A program made the translations under genes and the position numbers. Below are positions 1 through 61,704 of a stretch of DNA of 64,000 nt, in pieces (within the stretch, counting starts at the first letter, position 1; every line of letters starts with the position of its first letter). This DNA is from Candidatus Aenigmatarchaeota archaeon (GTDB taxonomy: Archaea; Aenigmatarchaeota; Aenigmatarchaeia; GW2011-AR5; JACRAC01): contig JACPJV010000033.1 of assembly GCA_016187395.1 (NCBI GenBank), positions 2,151-66,150 on the forward strand, written 5' to 3'. The notes below the pieces were generated by a model. It did not search any database. It saw only the letters and a program-made list of their open reading frames with translations, and had not been told where the DNA came from.

Positions 1-110
1 CGAAAGAACTCCAATTAAAACCTCTGACGTTAGTCAGAGGATAAAAATACTGAGTTCTTTCGAGATGCTTTGCTTCAAGACCCAGCAGGCCTTCGGCCTG
101 CGTGGCATAT
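1..110 (+). repeat. S2 structured element, copy A (nested stems plus second hairpin; 5' end may be cut by the window edge)
   Basis: A 10-bp outer stem gaaagaactc(2-11)/gagttctttc(52-61) encloses the hairpin cctctgac-gtta-gtcagagg. The conserved linker gagatgctttgcttcaaga follows, then a second hairpin at about 82-105. The same architecture occurs at 14521-14621(-), 21909-22016 and 43522-43628. Confidence 0.6.
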
Positions 111-224
111 GGAAGCAAATCATTTACGACGAAGCCCCCACTTGACATCTTCCTTTATTGCTTCAGCAACTCTTTTAGCTCTAGAAGTTTTGGATTTCAT
201 GTTATTACAAATATGGCATAAATT

Positions 225-6658: not shown

Positions 6659-9600
6659 ATGGCGACAACGGGAGACAAAGATAGAGAGCGCTCTCGACTT
6701 TTGGCTGAATTGCATAAAAAATTCCCTCACCTGAAAGAGGAGATTAACAAGGCAAAAAATGCAATATTCCGCGCCCATGCGCTTGCAAAAAGGCACAGAA
6801 AAAACCCGCACAGGGCGCGGCACGAAATCGGCTACATGGTCCAGTCAGGCCTTCTGCCCGCGCAGATAGCCAGGCATTTTTTAGAGATGTTATTAGAACC
6901 TTGGGAACCTGCCGGCGAGAATATAGATGTAGAACTTCCTTTGAAGGCAACGAGGCAGGCAAGGGAAGGCGGAGGTGGCGGGAGCAGGCTTGGAACATCA
7001 GAACAGGAAATAGAAAATGTATGGAACAGACTCCTTCCGCTCAGAGGCGAAGATATAGTTAAAAAAGAGTTGAGAAGGCTAAAAAGAGACTACCACCCTG
7101 ATGGATACCCGAACCCGGCAGACAAAATTATCGGAGAGATTGTATTCAAGGAAATCGGAAGAATAGAAAGTCTTCTCAAGTCTTTATTATGGGTGCCTAC
7201 AGTTGCGTATTCTAAATATTACAATTTCACAAGAAGTCCGTTTGGCGCAACCGAGCCTTCTCCTGAAGAAGCCGAAGAACCACAGGCTGCTCCTGCAGCC
7301 GCAGCAGCTGGCGCAGGAACTGGTGGTGGCGCAGGCGCCCCGCCACAACCACCGCCAGGCCCAGCCGCTGCCGGCGGAGGGGCAGGCGGCGGACGCAGGA
7401 GATGGAAATGGGGATTTGGAAGGCGGGCTGCGGCAGCCGCCGGTGCTGCCGCCGCAGGCGCTGCTGCCGGCGCTGCAGCAGGCGGCACCGCAGGAGGAGC
7501 AGCAGGAGCAGGCGGCGCAGGCCAGCAGGCGCCACCTCCAGGCAGGTCCAATTTCAGTGGCATTGTCTATGTAAGATCGCCGCGCTGGGCGACCAGAGAG
7601 GCAGGGAAAGGATACCCTGAGCAGGCGCCAGCTGCTCGCACGAGGCGCTTTGCATTCGGAACAAGAAGGCTTCCGGGCGCATCTGTGGAATGCAAGGGAA
7701 GACGCGCAGAGACAAATGTATTGGGACAGTTTGCATTCTATAATCTTCCGCCCGGCGCAGCAGAAGCAAAGATAAAATACGGAGACTACGAGAAAAGTTT
7801 CAGCGTAACCCTGACTCCTGGAGAGAACTTCAGGGAATTTGTTCTGGACATGTCTCCGGAATATGCCGAGGCAGGGCTGAAGATAGAAAGGTCCAGGAAA
7901 TTCATGAAGGCGCGCAGCAAGCTTGCACCGCGAATGCCCATTGCAGTTTTTGCCTCGCGAATAAGAAAGGCATTGTTCGCAGAAGGAAAAAAATTTTATT
8001 TAGACAAGAAAAAAGAGCTTGACAGCCTGATAAAGCAGGAAAAAGACGACAAAGATATGCTCGAAGGAGCCCTTGACGCAATGGATGCAGAGATAGAAGG
8101 CGAAAATAGAGAAAAATTCAGACAAAACAGGGAAAAGATAATGTCAGGGGCAATAGGCGCAGCAGCCGGCGCAGGCGAAGAAGGAGCTGCAGTCGGCAAA
8201 CTTTTAGAGGCTCTTTCCAAGGTGTCGCAGAACAGGGAGAATAGAGCAAAAACCCAAAGGCTTATAAACAACGTAGAATTCTGGCAGAAAACACTTCTTC
8301 AGAGAAGAAAAGGGATAGAAGGAATTGCAGACAAATTCGAGGACCAGGTAGAGAAGCACCTTAATGAATTCATGGAAGGGCTTGTGGGAGAGGTTGCAGG
8401 AGAGTACGGCAGGGAATACAATCCACAGGACGTTGAGAATTTGAAATTATGGATGAAGAAGTATGTCGCACTATACTCAAGGCATTACACAAAGCTTTTC
8501 AAGACAGGCAAGGGAATGCTGCGTTTCAAGGCTTTCGCTGGCCAGGGATTTCTTGGCGCAGGTGCCTACGGCATGGGCGCTCGTGAAATGCTCAATACGA
8601 TCGTCAAGGACTGGTGGGGCGTCTGGTTGTGGCCTCTGCTTAACTTATTCGTCCCTCCGCTTGGCTGGATCGTTCTTATCATATGGGCGATAATGAAGAT
8701 ACCTCTTGCGTCATCAGTGGTAGTGCTGTGGCTGCAGGTCGGCTTCCTTGTCGGCGGCACCATATTGGGATTAGCCTCGCTGCCGGGTTATACAGCAGCA
8801 GCCACGCTGACGCAGCTGCTGATTTTAGGGTTCATAGGAGGCGTGCTCAACTGGATTCTTAACATGCGGACGCAGGTTTCAGTAGGCCCTCTTTTTGAGG
8901 GCACACCATTCGGGACAATACTGCAGCAGTTTAGCCACATCACCGCAGGCGCCATGATATTCATTGGAGTCGGCATCTTCACAATGAGCCTGCAGCTTGG
9001 CCTTCCTGGCGTGGAGGGAATAGCGCTTATGGCAGGTGTTATATTATTATTCGCATTCCTCCTGCCGCCTGAGTATCTCTCTATGCTCATCATCGTTTTC
9101 ATAGTAATGGCAGGATTTTTCCCTGCGCTCGGCGGCGCAGCTACTGCAGTCTATGGAATCTTCGTAATAATGGGCATGACAAACTTCTATCCTGTGAGCG
9201 GTCTCGGCGGCATGAACGTAATTGCGCTTGCGGTTCTTGTTTTTGGTTATTTTGCACTTGGTCCTTACAGCGCCTTTGTGATAGATGCAATGAGCCAGAT
9301 CAAAGCGCCTATAACCTTTGCAGTAAACCAGGCAAAGGTCGCATTTAGTGACGTCTGGCTTTTGCTAACAAATCCTACAGCTTATTATCAGTCCCAGCAG
9401 TTCCGGCAGGTGAGGGCAGAGAGGCCTATCAGCTTTCCAGAAGGCGTGGAGATCACGCGTCTGGACGCAGTGCCGGACGGCACCGTGCCTGCAGGACAAC
9501 CCTTTGTCGTTTTTGCAGTCGTTGAAAACAGGGGAGACCAGGTTGCAGAGAACGTGCGGGTAACCGCGCAGTGCTCGCCAGGAACTCCTGCAAGCGCCAA

Positions 9601-14162: not shown

Positions 14163-14471
14163 TCATCTCATTATTTTCGCAATCGAAGGGCTCACAATAA
14201 TCCAGTCGTCGCCTGCCCCCACGATCTCGCCTCCTATTGCCTCTGTTGTGCGCCTTATTCGCTCTACCGCGCGCTTCAGTTCATTGATGTTCTTGTCCTT
14301 CAATTCCCTCACCTTAACCAGCATGATTGCGCCCTCGCGCACCTTTCTCTGAATCCGGTCACTGTCAGCGTATTCTGAAATCTTATCGACCTGTATAGGT
14401 ATTTTATGCAGCCGCTCGTCCTCTGCCTCGATTTCCATGTATTCCCCTTCTCCAAAGATCTTCATGTGCAT
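14163..14471 (-). CDS. sepF: SepF-like cell-division protein
   Basis: ~100 aa. IQRKVREGAIMLVKVRELKDKNINELKRAVERIRRTTEAIGGEIVGAGDDWIIVSP fits the SepF/DUF552 pattern. The true start may be at 14465. Confidence 0.75.
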   Translation of the reverse strand: MHMKIFGEGEYMEIEAEDERLHKIPIQVDKISEYADSDRIQRKVREGAIMLVKVRELKDKNINELKRAVERIRRTTEAIGGEIVGAGDDWIIVSPSIAKIMR

Positions 14472-14520
14472 ATTAGGAAAACAAAATATAAATAGGCTTG
14501 AGAAATGACATGCTTCTTAT

Positions 14521-14621
14521 ATGAACCGCTGGCTAAAGCCAGTGGTTTCCTGAAGCATGGCATGCCAAAGAACTTCGGTATCTTACTCCTCACTGAAGTG
14601 AGGAGTTTGCGAAGTTCTTTG
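14521..14621 (-). repeat. S2 structured element, copy D (between UPF0147 and sepF, same strand)
   Basis: The minus strand reads, in order: outer stem 5' half aaagaacttcg; caaa; hairpin ctcctcac-ttca-gtgaggag; taagatac; outer stem 3' half cgaagttcttt; linker ggcatgccatgcttcaggaa; hairpin accactggc-ttta-gccagcggt; tcat. Confidence 0.6.
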
Positions 14622-14625
14622 TGCA

Positions 14626-14961
14626 TCATCTTCCATTCTTTATTTTGACTTCGTTGTTTATCGTTTCCAGCATCGACAAAGCATTCCATATCTGCGTCCT
14701 TGAATAAGGCGGCAGATTTATGTCGTTGGCAACCTCGTCGAGAACAGATATAGCGGAATTAACGCGAAATTCCAGCTCAAGCTTTTCATTGGAAAGAAAC
14801 TCCATGGCCTTTACAATAGAGCTCTTTACGTTCTTCGGCACCGACCTGTCGTTGCCAATCTCCTCCAGAACGTTGATTACTAAATTTACTTCCATATGAT
14901 CACCCGTTGCACTTTCAAAATCCATTTGCGTCTGAATCATATCACCCTGCTTGCTTTCCAC
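14626..14961 (-). CDS. UPF0147 family protein
   Basis: GNDRSVPKNVKSS...ANDINLPPYSRTQIWNALSMLE matches the duplicated UPF0147 motif. Confidence 0.8.
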   Translation of the reverse strand: MESKQGDMIQTQMDFESATGDHMEVNLVINVLEEIGNDRSVPKNVKSSIVKAMEFLSNEKLELEFRVNSAISVLDEVANDINLPPYSRTQIWNALSMLETINNEVKIKNGR

Positions 14962-15292
14962 TGCCAGGTTTTATCATATTCTGAAGTTCATCCTGGGATT
15001 CTTTCATCATAGCTTCAAGCCTTTTTTCTTGCTTTTCAAGCCCCTTGATTTTCATGTCTATCTGCATCACGATCTCTTCCAGCTCTTCTTTCAGTTTTTC
15101 TTTCGTGCTTTTTAAGAGAACAGGCCCGACAGACTTGAATATGTCCCCTTTTGCATTAGCCACCTCCTCCAATGCCCTTTCTATTTCAATTTTTTGCATT
15201 GACAAAGACTGCTTCTGCATGACTACATTTTGCAGATGCTGGTTCTGTTCCTGGGCCCTGCCGAGTATTTCCTGAATCTCTTCATTCGCCAT
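14942..15292 (-). CDS. pfdB: prefoldin subunit beta
   Basis: Coiled-coil/beta-hairpin layout (QKQSLSMQKIEIERALEEV...DIFKSVGPVLLKSTKEK...LEKQEKRLE). The start was chosen at MANEEIQ, preceded by gtgaggt. Confidence 0.85.
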   Translation of the reverse strand: MANEEIQEILGRAQEQNQHLQNVVMQKQSLSMQKIEIERALEEVANAKGDIFKSVGPVLLKSTKEKLKEELEEIVMQIDMKIKGLEKQEKRLEAMMKESQDELQNMIKPGSGKQAG

Positions 15293-15469
15293 CGCAATCA
15301 ACCTCACGATTGCTCGCAAGCAATCGTGCATTCACCTTACACCTCTCGTTTCGCCGCGGCGACGGAAGCAAATGACATTTTCTGCAGAAAATGTCCATTC
15401 ACTCGCTGCATTCACTTTCAACCCCACGTTTTCCCGCAGGAAAACGTGCATTCACTTACACACCCGCCG
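15293..15469 (-). repeat. leader-hairpin array L1a (between rpoP and pfdB)
   Basis: Hairpins cacgattgct-cgca-agcaatcgtg (15305-15328), gacattttc-tgca-gaaaatgtc (15374-15395) and cacgttttcc-cgca-ggaaaacgtg (15425-15448) are joined by tgcattcac/cctcac linkers. Confidence 0.75.
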
Positions 15470-15595
15470 CTACACAGCCTTGACGCGCCTTACAACTTCA
15501 GGCCTTGCCTTTACTAATATGCGAAAACCGCAGTAGCTGCAGCGCACCTTGTCTTCTATTTCAACCTCCTTCTTGCACGAAAAACATCTATACAT
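15470..15595 (-). CDS. rpoP: DNA-directed RNA polymerase subunit P (Rpo12)
   Basis: Hand translation gives MYRCFSCKKEVEIEDKVRCSYCGFRILVKARPEVVRRVKAV, a zinc ribbon of typical RpoP size. It lies between rpl37ae and pfdB, as in many archaea. Confidence 0.8.
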   Translation of the reverse strand: MYRCFSCKKEVEIEDKVRCSYCGFRILVKARPEVVRRVKAV

Positions 15596-15690
15596 CGTTG
15601 ACACACCTCACATTTCGCTGCAGCGAAATGTGCATTCACATTCGACCTCACGTTTTCCCGCAGCAAAACGTGCATTCACCTTTCACACTA
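15596..15690 (-). repeat. leader-hairpin array L1b (between rpl37ae and rpoP)
   Basis: Hairpins cacatttcgc-tgca-gcgaaatgtg (15609-15632) and cacgttttcc-cgca-gcaaaacgtg (15649-15672). On the minus strand the array ends in gtgaggtgtgtcaacg directly before the rpoP ATG. Confidence 0.75.
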
Positions 15691-16496: not shown

Positions 16497-16592
16497 ATAT
16501 AGTGCTGCAAGGAATAAATCATGATATAATAATTCCTTGCGCACTATATGTGAACCAAATCCAAGTCGGTGTTATTAATTTGGTTCACTATA
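16497..16592 (+). repeat. S5 double-hairpin element, copy 1
   Basis: tatagtgctgcaaggaat...attccttgcgcactata followed by gtgaaccaaat...atttggttcactata. The second copy is at 56436-56530. Confidence 0.6.
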
Positions 16593-19313: not shown

Positions 19314-19380
19314 CTAGACACACCTCACGTTTTGCGAAGCAAAACGTGCATACACCTTCAACCTCACGATTCATCTTCAC
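19314..19380 (-). repeat. leader-hairpin unit L2 upstream of psmB
   Basis: cacgttttgc-gaa-gcaaaacgtg (19326-19348) flanked by cacctcac and tgcatacacc. The minus strand ends in gtgaggtgtgtctag directly before the ATG. Confidence 0.7.
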
Positions 19381-19980: not shown

Positions 19981-20119
19981 TCCAAATCTATTCGGGTGCC
20001 GCTCTTCTTTATGGATTTCCACGCCCTTTGATAAGCCTCTTCCAGTTCGTGGTCTGCGAATTTGGGCTTTGGTTTCATGCTATCATCTTATGTTATTGGT
20101 TCAACATTCTTTATAAGCT

Positions 20120-20216
20120 TATAGCAAGCCAACTTAATGAAAGGCATACCAAAAGTTGGTTTGCTATATGGGAAAGCACAAATGTCATGTTCCATTTCAT
20201 TTGTGGTTTCACTATA
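20120..20216 (-). mobile_element. TA-bracketed double-hairpin (MITE-like) element, copy 2
   Basis: The reverse complement aligns end to end with 53017-53112, about nine-tenths identical by eye. Confidence 0.6.
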
Positions 20217-21617: not shown

Positions 21618-21642
21618 ATATCTTTCGGTAGCATCTATATCA

Positions 21643-21882
21643 ATGGAGGTAAAGTACATAGATGTGCCAGAGCCGACAAGCACGCTCGGAACAAGGTCGC
21701 TCATGCTCGCAGTATACATCATGGAAAGATGCCGAAACGGAAGGAGAACAACGGATCATCTGCTTGCAGCTGCGCAGAATCTGAGGCTCGCAAGAGAAGA
21801 GGGCTTGGATATTTATCCGAAAGATGAAAGATTCTTACGCTTGGCAGAAAGATATCTCAACGGAAACGGAACGCATCAGTGA
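21643..21882 (+). CDS. small hypothetical protein
   Basis: An internal ATG in track ORF 21535-21882 was chosen because the 5' part overlaps the methyltransferase gene. Confidence 0.4.
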   Translation: MEVKYIDVPEPTSTLGTRSLMLAVYIMERCRNGRRTTDHLLAAAQNLRLAREEGLDIYPKDERFLRLAERYLNGNGTHQ

Positions 21883-21908
21883 ACCAGACGAATCTTCTGT
21901 TTTATCTT

Positions 21909-22016
21909 CGGAAGCCTCCTCCTAAAACCTCTGGCTTTAGCCAGAGGATAAGGATACAGGAGGCTTCCGAGATGCTTTGCTTCAAGAAACCGCAGGCTTT
22001 AGCCTGCGGTTCATAG
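21909..22016 (+). repeat. S2 structured element, copy B
   Basis: In order: outer stem 5' half tcggaagcctcc; ..taaaa; hairpin cctctggc-ttta-gccagagg; ataaggatac; outer stem 3' half aggaggcttccga; linker gatgctttgcttcaagaa; hairpin accgcaggc-ttta-gcctgcggt; tcata. Confidence 0.65.
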
Positions 22017-22034
22017 ATGCGCAGTTTCCAAAGG

Positions 22035-22857: not shown

Positions 22858-22969
22858 GGGCCTGTGGTGTAGCTTGGTTATCATTCGAGCCTTGGGACAG
22901 ACTGACGCTTCGAAGAAGCGTCTTTTTGCATCATAGCTCGCGACGCCAGTTCAAATCTGGCCAGGCCCA
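22858..22969 (+). tRNA. tRNA-Pro (anticodon UGG) with a 38-nt intron at 37/38 (22897-22934)
   Basis: Acceptor GGGCCTG/CAGGCCC, U8, A14, G18G19, anticodon stem CGAGC/GCTCG, loop CTTGGG..A, T-arm GCCAG-TTCAAAT-CTGGC, discriminator A, no encoded CCA. The intron contains the hairpin gacgcttc-gaa-gaagcgtc. Confidence 0.85.
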
Positions 22970-34609: not shown

Positions 34610-34741
34610 TTAGTTTATCCTGAGCAGGCTGAGAGAAGTGCAGAGCGGGCATTTGAGTGTCTGATAGTACCAGACAAACTCGCAACTATTACACTTCCAC
34701 GTTTCTATCTGCACAGTGTCGTATTTCGGCTTTCTTGGCAT
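34610..34741 (-). CDS. 43-aa zinc-ribbon protein
   Basis: MPRKPKYDTVQIETWKCNSCEFVWYYQTLKCPLC. The start was set at the internal ATG because the upstream codons are hairpin-repeat sequence. Confidence 0.5.
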   Translation of the reverse strand: MPRKPKYDTVQIETWKCNSCEFVWYYQTLKCPLCTSLSLLRIN

Positions 34742-34850
34742 CGAAATCAAACCCCGCGATTTGCTTCGGCAAATCGCGAATGCACCCGCACACCTCACGT
34801 TTTGCCGAAGCAAAACGTGCATTCACCTTACCAGCCTCACATTCGCCTCT
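34742..34850 (-). repeat. leader-hairpin array L3
   Basis: The array contains cgcgatttgc-ttcg-gcaaatcgcg and cacgttttgc-cgaa-gcaaaacgtg with tgcattcacc/cacctcac linkers. The minus strand ends in ggggtttgatttcg directly before the ATG. Confidence 0.7.
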
Positions 34851-36699: not shown

Positions 36700-36863
36700 G
36701 TGTATGTACATGAGTGAATGGACGTTTCTCTGCAGAGAAACGTCAGTTTGCCTCCGCTGCAGAGAAATGTGAGGTGTGAATGAATGCAGCGAGTGAATGG
36801 ACATTTTCTGCAGAAAATGTCATTTGCTTCCGTCGCCGCGGCGAAACGAGAGGTGTGTTTACG
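36697..36863 (+). repeat. leader-hairpin array L4 (plus-strand orientation)
   Basis: Contains gacgtttctc-tgca-gagaaacgtc and gacattttc-tgca-gaaaatgtc. 36781-36856 is the perfect reverse complement of 15339-15414. The array ends in gagaggtgtgtttacg directly before the ATG. Confidence 0.8.
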
Positions 36864-43387: not shown

Positions 43388-43417
43388 GTAAGAGGATTTT
43401 TTGTTACCATATCATGA

Positions 43418-43517
43418 TCGCCTTAGTGCGTTGCGGCTTTTAATCGGCACCACACCCGATTAACAAGGCGAGCAGCGCGCCACAGCGGGCGATATGCTGC
43501 GTGGCGCGCCTTTTTTT
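43418..43517 (+). ncRNA. GC-rich double-hairpin segment ending in T7 (small RNA or terminator-like 3' structure)
   Basis: tcgcctt...aaggcga encloses ttaatcgg-caccacac-ccgattaa. It is followed by gcgcgccac...gtggcgcgc and ttttttt. The segment looks clearly more GC-rich than its flanks by eye. Confidence 0.35.
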
Positions 43518-43521
43518 ATCT

Positions 43522-43628
43522 TCGGAAGCCTCCTCTTAAAACCTCCACCTTCAGGTGGAGGATAAGATACGGAAGGCTTCCGAGATGCTTTGCTCTAGGA
43601 AACCCACACCTTTAGGTGTGGGAGTATA
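43522..43628 (+). repeat. S2 structured element, copy C
   Basis: In order: outer stem 5' half tcggaagcctcc; tcttaaaa; hairpin cctccacc-ttca-ggtggagg; ataagatac; outer stem 3' half ggaaggcttccga; linker gatgctttgctctaggaa; hairpin acccacacc-ttta-ggtgtggg. Confidence 0.65.
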
Positions 43629-43721
43629 CAGAGCAAATTATTCTTTGTTTTTCTTCATCTGACAGGAGCGCTGAAATAAATCTCCGGATTTCAGGATCCC
43701 TGATATCCTCTATTTCAGGGG

Positions 43722-52965: not shown

Positions 52966-53016
52966 AGTTTATAAAATACAAATTACATAAAACTCTGAAA
53001 GAAAAAATAATGGAGT

Positions 53017-53112
53017 TATAGTGAAACCACAAATGAAACGGAACATGACATTTGTGCTTTCCCATATAGCAAACCAACTTTGCTATGCGGTTTATTAAGT
53101 TGGTTTGCTATA
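53017..53112 (+). mobile_element. TA-bracketed double-hairpin (MITE-like) element, copy 3 (compact reference copy)
   Basis: tatagtgaaac-cacaaatg-aaacggaacatga-catttgtg-ctttcccata followed by tagcaaaccaactt-...-aagttggtttgctata. Confidence 0.65.
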
Positions 53113-53121
53113 ACGCCACAT

Positions 53122-56435: not shown

Positions 56436-56530
56436 TATAGTGCTACAAGGAATAAATCGGGATATAATAATTCCTTGTGCACTATACTGTGAAACAAGGA
56501 CATGTCGGTATTATTCCTTGTTTCACATTA
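56436..56530 (+). repeat. S5 double-hairpin element, copy 2
   Basis: tatagtgctacaaggaat...attccttgtgcactata followed by gtgaaacaagga...tccttgtttcac. The changes relative to copy 1 are compensatory. Confidence 0.6.
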
Positions 56531-60731: not shown

Positions 60732-61003
60732 TGCCCCCGCCGAGAGTTTCGCCAATCCCATTTCATATTACCGGAGCGAAGCTCCGAAAGTTCTTTTGGG
60801 GTTCTCCAAGACCTTTTCTTTCAAGAAAAGGGATTGGATTCGAACTCGGGTTTCAAGGTATCTGCAATTCAAATACCGCAACCTTGTGTCCTATTTGCTT
60901 CCAAGCGAAGTCTTCCGCGCGCAGCTGGTTCGCTGCGGTCGGCGTGTATTATTTCTCCCTTGCTCACGCACGCTGCGCTTGGACCAGGCTAGACTACGAG
61001 GGC
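60732..61003 (-). tRNA. tRNA-Arg (anticodon GCG) with three introns: 60895-60983 (D-loop), 60860-60875 (37/38), 60746-60838 (59/60)
   Basis: Acceptor GCCCTCG/CGGGGGC, U8, A14, G18G19, D-stem GTCT/GGAC, anticodon arm CAAGG-TTGCGG.A-CCTTG, T-arm CCGAG-TTCGAAT-CTCGG, discriminator A. Each intron sits in a helix-bulge-helix-bulge-helix fold. The spliced product is 74 nt. Confidence 0.85.
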
Positions 61004-61301: not shown

Positions 61302-61354
61302 GAAAAGTTCTTTTGGGGTTCACCAAGACCTTTTCTTTCAAGAAAAGGGATTGG
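61302..61354 (+). repeat. copy of the tRNA-Arg T-loop-intron segment, forming the EF-1beta leader
   Basis: gaaaagttcttttggggttcaccaagaccttttctttcaagaaaagggattgg compared with 60786-60837 shows one indel and one substitution. It contains the 9-bp palindrome ccttttctt-tca-agaaaagg. Confidence 0.8.
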
Positions 61355-61355
61355 T

Positions 61356-61601
61356 ATGGGAAAAGTTGCCATTACTTTCAAGGTAATGCCCGAATCTGCT
61401 GATGTGGATATAGAGGAAATAAAGGGTAAGATAGAACAGTTAGGTGCGAAGCAGATTCACACAGAAGAAATAGCCTTCGGGCTAAAAGCCCTGAAAGTCC
61501 TGTTTGTTGTCGAAGACAAGGAAGGACAGGATATGGAAGGCAGGCTCTCTTCAATAAGTGGAGTAGGGTCAATAGAAACAGAGGCAATAACCAGATTGTG
61601 A
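61356..61601 (+). CDS. translation elongation factor aEF-1 beta
   Basis: MGKVAITFKVMPESADVDIEEIKGKI...IAFGLKALKVLFVVEDKEG has typical aEF-1beta size and sequence. Confidence 0.9.
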   Translation: MGKVAITFKVMPESADVDIEEIKGKIEQLGAKQIHTEEIAFGLKALKVLFVVEDKEGQDMEGRLSSISGVGSIETEAITRL

Positions 61602-61608
61602 ATTTCAT

Positions 61609-61704
61609 TATAGCAAACCAACTTAATAAACGGCATGGCAAAGTTGGTTTGCTATGTGGGAAAGCACAAATGACATGTTCCGTTTCATTTGTGGTTTCAC
61701 TATA
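61609..61704 (-). mobile_element. TA-bracketed double-hairpin (MITE-like) element, copy 4
   Basis: The reverse complement is nearly identical to 53017-53112. It starts 8 nt after the EF-1beta stop. Confidence 0.65.

Follow-up and report, generated by a model that had tools for sequence, protein, structure and literature searches.

In Escherichia coli, repetitive extragenic palindromic (REP) sequences form part of the transcript of the gene upstream and, as structures at its 3' end, stabilise that messenger RNA (mRNA). The present analysis concerns S2, a ~120-nt non-coding element composed of two side-by-side hairpins, which occurs in exactly four copies in a 64-kb stretch of contig JACPJV010000033.1 (the whole of this stretch is hereafter referred to as the window) from a Candidatus Aenigmarchaeota metagenome-assembled genome (MAG). 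The DPANN archaea have tiny, streamlined genomes, the non-coding elements of which are almost unexplored. Miniature inverted-repeat transposable elements, or MITEs, are reported to be taxon-specific and to be densest, among archaea, in DPANN genomes (PMC11602168). The REP associated with a REP-associated tyrosine transposase (RAYT) is characterised in PMC3733652 as a palindrome of 20-40 bp that carries the tetranucleotide GTAG or CGTC at one end.

The four copies of S2 were analysed for their fold, covariation, genomic setting and similarity to described RNA families and repeats. What can most safely be said is that S2 constitutes a novel family of structured repeats, scattered between genes and most akin to the REPs and the bacterial interspersed mosaic elements (BIMEs), and that its fold is under selection, the family or each resident copy keeping two compound hairpins together with specific loop sequences. 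With about an even chance of being correct, S2 can further be read as a repeat dispersed as DNA within the lineage, retained at gene 3' ends and read into mRNA as a 3' structure.

Copies, fold and covariation of S2

The copies are designated c1 to c4, c3 being the copy at 21909 described in the initial annotation of this DNA. The whole elements span 1..123 (c1, + strand, beginning at the first base of the window), 14505..14621 (c2, - strand), 21909..22027 (c3, + strand) and 43523..43641 (c4, + strand). A covariance model derived from the four copies rescores them at 98-135 bits with E-values of 1e-18 to 1e-25 (98.5, 105.7, 134.9 and 120.4 bits for c1 to c4, respectively), and their predicted RNA stability is -58 to -70 kcal/mol, with minimum free energies (MFEs) of -59.3, -57.8, -70 and -65.3 kcal/mol and z-scores of -9.74, -7.56, -8.25 and -8.99. 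The loop and linker pattern GAGG-N5-6-ATAC-N14-ATGCNNTGCTNNANGA matches only these four sites in the window and none in 100 shuffles, and the linker 20-mer has three window sites at up to 3 mismatches against 0.02 expected. No fifth copy was found in the 64 kb by the covariance model with filters off, which returned only weak reverse-strand echoes of the same palindromes. Neighbouring copies lie 7-22 kb apart, at a density of one per 16 kb, and the four copies share 57-72% identity. The pattern and the covariance model thus agree on the four places that had been claimed. As for the extent of ~105 nt given earlier, its 3' limits fall short, the element running ~11-13 nt further.

Folded within the narrower limits, the copies reach z-scores from -6.7 to -8.2 relative to dinucleotide shuffles, none of which equals any copy; when each copy is lengthened by ~15 nt the fold changes and z falls to as low as -9.7. 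The lengthened element consists of two directly abutting hairpins, each of the form helix, internal loop, helix (P1a/P1b and P2a/P2b). Hairpin 1 has a P1a of 12 bp, an internal loop with YUAAAA on its 5' side and AUAARRAUAC on its 3' side, and a P1b of 8 bp closed by a tetraloop. In hairpin 2, a P2a of 11 bp with one mismatch is followed by an internal loop (5' ARGAA, 3' YCAUAU) and a P2b of 9 bp with a UUUA loop. Every copy takes up the nested arrangement (an outer stem with internal loops, an inner hairpin of 8 bp, then a second hairpin) that the initial annotation had described, and the stem sequences it quoted are correct. The exception is a segment, gagatgctttgcttcaagaa, which it had taken to be conserved and single-stranded. 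The GAG before ATG lengthens the outer stem. In all four MFE folds ATGCTTTGCTTC, the former linker, is paired with the 3' tail beyond the CATAT motif, so that the second hairpin is enclosed, and this helix shows compensatory changes. Since the linker pairs with a tail outside the limits first reported, S2 is to be described as two adjacent compound hairpins of ~120 nt.

The strands of P2a are ATGCTTTGCTTC/GAAGCAAATCAT in c1, ATGCCATGCTTC/GAAGCATGTCAT in c2 and ATGCTTTGCTCT/AGAGCAAATTAT in c4, with compensatory changes at TTTGCTTC/GAAGCAAA, CATGCTTC/GAAGCATG and TTTGCTCT/AGAGCAAA, respectively; all three have retained a C.T mismatch, identically placed in each. The 3' tail of c3, GATGCGCAGTTT, is degenerate, and its P2a is decayed, 8 of the 11 positions pairing (two of them as G-U), with a C-G pair where the other copies have the mismatch. 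Hairpin 1 of c3 (21909..21969, + strand) is formed by a 12-bp P1a, CGGAAGCCTCCT/AGGAGGCTTCCG, and an 8-bp P1b, CCTCTGGC/GCCAGAGG, with a TTTA loop, separated by CCTAAAA on the 5' side and ATAAGGATAC on the 3' side; its outer stem can be extended through TTC/GAG to 21906. Hairpin 2 of c3, on the same strand, comprises the P2a 5' strand ATGCTTTGCTTC at 21972..21983, which pairs with the 3' tail in the MFE fold, the P2b hairpin ACCGCAGGC-TTTA-GCCTGCGGT at 21989..22010, seen in both the MFE fold and the structural alignment, and the P2a 3' strand at 22016..22027, which lies beyond the coordinates first reported.

For the covariation analysis, the four copies were aligned to the structure by hand and padded with N, and MAFFT kept the columns. 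The alignment contains 40 pairs, of which standard pairs fill 95.6% of the 160 cells and 25 have changed on both sides; these counts come from only four sequences, paralogues of one genome, in an alignment fitted to the structure. None of 500 column shuffles reached any of five pairing measures, and in a control with the 3' partners slid by 1-3 columns pairing was only 35-45%. All four helices contribute to the signal, including P2a (helix 3), with 93% of its cells paired and four double-change pairs. Identity is 76.6% in the unpaired columns (92% in L2), 60.2% in the paired columns and 33% in the flanks, which equals the background. The covariation with conserved loops proposed from the sequence is therefore borne out.

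The kinship of the copies is mosaic, the P1a of c3 resembling that of c4, its P1b and P2b resembling those of c1, and the P1a of c2 resembling that of c1. Therefore, the changes do not represent four independent lineages. The mosaic pattern suggests exchange between the copies, such as gene conversion within a repeat family would give. Because the copies are paralogous and not orthologous, the covariation indicates that the potential to form the hairpins has been kept in the family, not that a discrete RNA is made, and the counts from these four hand-aligned paralogues are equally expected of a DNA hairpin element. The signature of a 'functional RNA or structured DNA' proposed initially thus stands in its hedged form: upkeep of the fold is upheld, a discrete RNA of ~105 nt is not.

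Setting at gene 3' ends and the level of constraint

Profile scans of the window open reading frames (ORFs) reveal an ordinary archaeal chromosome, with genes for aCPSF1/FttA, the CCA-adding enzyme, ProRS, CTP synthase, Pus10, Mre11/Rad50, FEN1, prefoldin, UPF0147 and SepF. The S2 copies are placed in narrow, non-essential gaps that follow stop codons, for the most part where two genes converge. Copy c2 starts 4 nt past the UPF0147 stop (14626-14628) and ends just before the TATA box of sepF, the ATG of which is at 14471. Copy c3 lies 27 nt past the stop of a small ORF and ~8 nt before the stop of a convergent TYW2/Trm5 gene. Copy c4 comes after the DUF5667 gene, a GC-rich hairpin and a T7 run, and has a T5 run on its 3' side. 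Copy c1 lies in a convergent spacer, where other palindromic repeats (D2/D17) follow it. A position 3' of a co-oriented gene, assigned earlier to all copies, was confirmed for c2, c3 and c4, the upstream side of c1 being outside the window. As to strand relative to transcription, only c2 is informative, and it is co-oriented; the other spacers are convergent or ambiguous.

Several further features were observed beside the copies. The 417-nt spacer between the UbiE-like methyltransferase and TYW2 genes holds, in addition to c3, a possible 79-codon ORF (ATG at 21644, stop at 21880-21882; within 21618-21904, + strand) that matches no Pfam or NCBIfam family. A tRNA gene (22858-22969, + strand) whose anticodon loop carries a 41-nt insertion (intron) sits close upstream of the start of the TYW2/Trm5 gene; it was detected by the relaxed Rfam search only (46.9 bits, E 7e-7) and missed by ARAGORN and by the run at gathering thresholds. 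Between the DUF5667 gene and c4 lies a GC-rich (~65%) stretch of ~95 nt (43417-43517, + strand) that ends in a 13-bp GC hairpin, GGCGCGCCAC...GTGGCGCGCC, and the T7 run; it has a modest z of -2.7 and no Rfam match, and may represent a small RNA or else a terminator.

In protein searches the window matches a 75,952-bp NCBI contig of a Candidatus Aenigmarchaeota MAG at 100% identity. The host MAG has no close relative in the databases, the nearest sharing 60-69% amino acid identity (67-69% for aCPSF1). Gene order is kept in contigs of four relatives (L064, L066, L067/L068 and L061-63), and S2 is missing at the syntenic sites. The spacer 3' of TYW2, 417 nt in the window, is 28 nt in L061 and replaced by overlapping genes in L064; that between the UPF0147 and SepF genes is 66 nt in L064 and holds unrelated sequence in L066 and L067. 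The covariance model found no copy in ~75 kb of unique DNA from the relatives, where the density in the window predicts 4-5, and no dispersed repeat families at all were present at their syntenic loci. Searches with the loop and linker pattern gave 21 matches in the 596 Gb of GTDB species genomes, of which the three archaeal ones, read directly, are chance matches, and 33 in JGI metagenomes and five in IMG/VR, all by chance; a blastn search of c3 against plasmid and phage collections found nothing real. As far as can be seen, S2 is restricted to this Aenigmarchaeota lineage.

Two observations were made in other contigs. In the relative L067, positions 9148-9204, behind a gene and between those for ProRS and the proteasome, contain two adjacent perfect hairpins, CGAAAAGC..GCTTTTCG and ATGCCGAAGACC-TCA-GGTCTTCGGGCAT; the S2 model scores them weakly (13.7 bits, E 0.64), and they are not of the same family. 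This pair hints that 3' hairpins may be common across the phylum. The Logan contig SRR12113424_42130 (L060; 986 bp), which comes from the source sample and is the only other public contig to carry the TYW2 gene of this organism, ends inside c3 at the boundary of P2a and P2b (955-986). This end fits the break of a k-mer assembly at a repeat with an inner hairpin that varies from copy to copy and, like the start of the window at a copy, fits assemblies that are interrupted by repeats.

The composition of the stems bears on whether RNA or DNA is constrained. They are near-purely Watson-Crick: among ~175 pairs, G-U accounts for 4 when the forward strand is read and for 5 when the reverse is. S2 in reverse complement folds no less well than in forward orientation, and with DNA parameters, too, both strands fold well. 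With almost no wobble pairs on either strand, the comparison of G-U and A-C counts ends in a draw: an A.C mismatch in c2 would be G-U on the opposite strand, while the two G-U pairs in the decayed P2a of c3 favour the forward strand. So few wobble pairs are not what a constraint acting on RNA alone usually leaves, and they fit a DNA hairpin or a need for folding on both strands. Given the few G-U pairs and the equal folding of both strands, a constraint at the DNA level or on both strands is at least as likely as one on RNA only.

A rival view is that S2 is a host-selected structured RNA module of 3' untranslated regions, perhaps released as a stable small RNA or serving as a ribonucleoprotein scaffold, in which the loops would bind a specific protein or dock on each other and each copy would be under purifying selection. 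The conservation of the loops above the stems, highest in L2, the extensive compensation despite the divergence of the copies and the co-orientation of c2 with its operon speak for such a module, as do the G-U pairs of c3, which work on the forward strand only. The two arms are also of equal length, P1a and P2a both setting the internal loops ~12 bp from the junction, and the arrays of variable-stem hairpins before a Shine-Dalgarno-like GAGGT and gene starts (see below) make RNA-level use of hairpins look general in this genome. However, the near absence of G-U pairs, the c2 mismatch that would pair on the other strand, the lack of anything conserved at the syntenic sites of the relatives and the T7 run that precedes c4 all tell against it, and no known protein-binding motif was seen on inspection, neither the tandem G.A of a kink-turn (K-turn) nor a loop-E consensus. 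We therefore regard a module of this kind as unlikely.

The Watson-Crick-only stems, being symmetric palindromes in which both strands are equivalent in folding, and the roughly regular spacing of 7-22 kb would also suit a double-stranded DNA or cruciform site for a chromosomal protein of organisation, segregation or recombination, with neither an RNA role nor mobility. The conserved loops are, however, asymmetric (5 and 10 nt), unlike the site of a dimeric protein that binds double-stranded DNA; S2 is missing from relatives with the same gene order, and no candidate partner gene was identified. This explanation is accordingly judged very improbable.

Affinity to known RNA families and repeats

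S2 has no match in Rfam 15 at gathering thresholds, and at E ≤ 0.05 the whole window yields only one tRNA elsewhere. At E ≤ 10, c3 gives sub-threshold look-alikes of microRNA and small-RNA hairpins (the best at 22 bits against a threshold of 60 bits) and no ribozyme family, and ARAGORN returned nothing. The initial failure to place S2 in a known RNA class is thereby extended to Rfam at strict and relaxed thresholds alike. C/D and H/ACA guide RNAs were rejected, S2 having no RUGAUGA/CUGA or ACA boxes and internal loops that are conserved and not a variable guide. A K-turn is not compatible with the L2 of c1, AUAAAAAUAC, which is without any G and makes a G.A tandem impossible; loop-E, bulge-helix-bulge, group II intron domain V/VI and bridge-RNA readings of the loops were rejected on inspection of the aligned copies. 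A small protein was rejected as well, one frame being open in c1 and c2 but frameshifted in c4 and interrupted by a stop in c3. The concatenated six-frame translations of the four copies found no match among 5.8 billion predicted proteins to ORFs miscalled over copies.

The absence of an Rfam match, the strong fold and the conserved loops could be taken to indicate that the paralogous copies are small-RNA genes in their own right, belonging to a new class, or else self-cleaving ribozymes. S2 shares with the hairpin ribozyme an architecture of two domains, each of the form helix, internal loop, helix, that lie side by side and have conserved loops rich in purines, and the ARGAA and AUAxxAUAC strands loosely recall its loops A and B. 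The polarity of the AGAA-like loop is, however, opposite to that of the hairpin ribozyme, no conserved N-GUC strand was seen on inspection, the proximal helices are of 12 bp and not ~4 bp, and even the most relaxed search with c3 retrieved no ribozyme. Inspection of the sequence upstream of the copies also revealed no shared promoter, or B recognition element and TATA box, at a usable distance: c2 abuts a stop codon, and the TTTTATC of c3 and c4 is separated from the stem by only ~5 nt, which is too little for a transcript that holds the outer stem to be started there. A gene or ribozyme of this description is very improbable. S2 has more the look of a dispersed palindromic repeat of its lineage, akin to REPs or MITEs, than of a free-standing small-RNA gene, and the reading as a REP/BIME-like repeat does not make it one.

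Among described repeats, S2 resembles the REPs and BIMEs of proteobacteria in consisting of short non-coding hairpin repeats that are dispersed, lie after stop codons or between convergent genes and occur near other palindromes (c1 by D2/D17). It differs in its two compound hairpins, its length of ~120 nt, its archaeal host and the far greater divergence of its copies; neither end carries a conserved GTAG or CGTC, and no RAYT gene was seen in the 64 kb. Like MITEs, S2 is small, non-coding, multicopy, dispersed in intergenic regions, taxon-specific, strongly folding and missing at the same sites in relatives, and a MITE-like family with terminal inverted repeats (TIRs) exists in the same window. 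Unlike in MITEs, the ends of S2 do not pair together but form side-by-side hairpins, the 5' end (CGGAAGCC... or CGAAAGAAC...) being unlike the reverse-complemented 3' end (AAATGATTTGCTTC), and the copies, at 57-72%, are not near-identical. Nor was any target-site duplication (TSD) found in 45-nt flanks, the shared direct words being 4-6 nt at most and none abutting the ends of the element.

The palindrome-associated transposable elements (PATEs) of haloarchaea, which derive from IS200/IS605, are similar in being strand-specific elements without TIR or TSD, with a hairpin near each end and covarying stems, but S2 has no tnpA or tnpB nearby (within the 64 kb), is much shorter and does not match the IS605-related RNA motifs of Rfam. 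The enterobacterial repetitive intergenic consensus (ERIC) sequences, or intergenic repeat units (IRUs), resemble S2 as imperfect palindromes of ~125 nt in transcribed intergenic regions with the ability to fold as RNA; they differ in that a single long hairpin is built about a central inverted repeat, are bacterial only and have no sequence similarity to S2. Integron attC sites were rejected, no copy having the core sites R''(RYYYAAC)...R'(GTTRRRY) and the copies being scattered among housekeeping genes 7-22 kb apart.

These comparisons raise the question of whether S2 is a purely selfish, non-autonomous transposon that moves as a single-stranded DNA hairpin, of the IS200/IS605 type or mobilised by a RAYT as a REP is, with the hairpins as left and right ends for a Y1/HUH enzyme encoded elsewhere and with no host function. 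Two subterminal hairpins without TIR or TSD and Watson-Crick stems that would fold equally as single-stranded DNA on either strand are in line with such an element, as are the absence of S2 from relatives and the other mobile-looking palindromes in the window. HUH enzymes read features like the conserved loop and mismatch positions, including the C.T mismatch of P2a kept in three copies, and the tops of the inner hairpins are alike within a copy (GGC-TTTA-GCC twice in c3, CACC-TTYA-GGTG twice in c4), as if one protein read both. On the other hand, scans with Pfam and NCBIfam profiles of the ~35 ORFs in the 64 kb identified no transposase, integrase, HUH/Y1, TnpA, TnpB or RAYT gene. The left ends share no tetra- or pentanucleotide, which insertion of IS200/IS605 requires: the left flanks of c2, c3 and c4, the only three usable, have no fixed word (GATGATGCA compared with TTTTATCTT), which, from so few flanks, counts as weak evidence. 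The copies are too diverged for recent activity, and S2 is far larger than a REP and without its tetranucleotide tag. A selfish transposon of this sort is thus considered unlikely.

The reading as a dispersed REP/BIME-like repeat combines movement as DNA with a role at gene 3' ends, and we infer the dispersal, and any function at 3' ends, from the sequences of four copies on one contig. The family would have arisen and spread in the lineage through a copy-and-insert process or through recombinational dispersal of hairpin-forming DNA, and the copies that persisted would be those at gene 3' ends. There S2 would be read through from the upstream transcription unit, its stable fold becoming a 3'-terminal structure of the mRNA that may bar 3'-to-5' decay and shield adjoining or convergent units from one another, as the REP sequences of enterobacteria do. 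The conserved loops UAAAA, AUAARRAUAC, ARGAA and CAUAU would contact a protein that recognises S2, either for dispersal or on RNA.

Several points weigh against this reading. The ~35 ORFs scanned in the 64 kb encode no transposase, integrase or HUH/Y1 enzyme, and S2 is without TIR, TSD or a common target sequence. Identities of 57-72% with near-perfect pairing are unlike a recent transposition burst; such a pattern calls for selection acting on every resident copy, or else for master copies, long diverged and still constrained, to have been sampled. Co-transcription of c4 is doubtful, since the preceding hairpin and T7 run should already stop archaeal transcription. A further, tentative reading, which we hold to be improbable though worth stating, is that S2 belongs to an undescribed class of structured elements of a deep DPANN lineage, either a two-domain RNA of mRNA 3' ends, the loops of which bind protein or dock, or the cis element of a new hairpin-guided mobile DNA without TIR or TSD. 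In both forms the stems could be free to vary and the loops could carry the specificity.

Other hairpin repeats in the window and the significance of S2

A scan of the whole window for repeats identified another element of two hairpins, ~98 nt long and bounded by TATAG(Y)(R)AAACCA TIRs (TATAG...CTATA), present in four copies of ~95-100% identity, all at gene 3' ends (223-274 with 376-425; 53015-53113; 20107-20216, inverted; and 61596-61704, inverted). It looks like a recently active MITE, and short palindromic elements were therefore mobile in this genome. The two hairpins of the first copy are separated by a 100-nt block (275-376) of four consecutive perfect hairpins, AGGAGGAAC-GAA-GTTCCTCCT, TGATGAACC-GAA-GGTTCATCA, TGGAAAAC-TTTC-AGTTTTCCA and GCAGAAGC-TTC-GCTTCTGC, spaced by GTAC/TGTACA. 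As a whole, 257-394 is a palindrome with 73-nt arms, and the ORF called at 205-450 on the reverse strand is probably spurious.

Another type of repeat consists of arrays of GTGAATGCAC-N6-7-TGCR-N6-7-GTGAGGT with conserved flanks and covarying stems, the hairpins being located at 15287-15690 (- strand), 19330-19358, 34737-34829, 36721-36744 and 36800-36821. Such arrays lie directly upstream of the starts of prefoldin beta and of a 41-codon CxxC ORF that occupies the RpoP position, in an L37ae-RpoP-prefoldin operon, the genes of which are only 8-14 nt apart in the relatives (L064, L066). The GAGGT resembles a Shine-Dalgarno sequence, and the arrays may constitute a family of RNA elements of 5' untranslated or intercistronic regions. 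Two palindromic pairs were also noted, TATAGTGCTGCAAGGAAT...ATTCCTTGCGCACTATA at 16498-16548 and 56436-56486 (92% identity) and AAGACCTTTTCTT-TC-AAGAAAAGGGATTGG at 60787-60837 and 61304-61354 (98% identity). The genome is thus rich in hairpins, several families of which, S2 among them, are specific to the lineage and missing at the corresponding loci of its nearest relatives.

At a practical level, repeats of the S2 type break the assemblies of these MAGs, as is seen from the window, which starts at a copy, and the Logan contig, which ends inside one. The conservation of the loops over the stems at ~60-70% identity between the copies is sharp and leaves a real, if small, chance of something mechanistically new. 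Either way, S2 offers a clean case for asking whether covariation among intragenomic repeats reflects RNA function or the maintenance of DNA hairpins. If S2 acts as RNA, it would represent a lineage-specific way of building the 3' ends of archaeal mRNAs, the biology of whose ends is little understood; should S2 instead act as DNA, it would point to an unrecognised mobilisation system in the Aenigmarchaeota.

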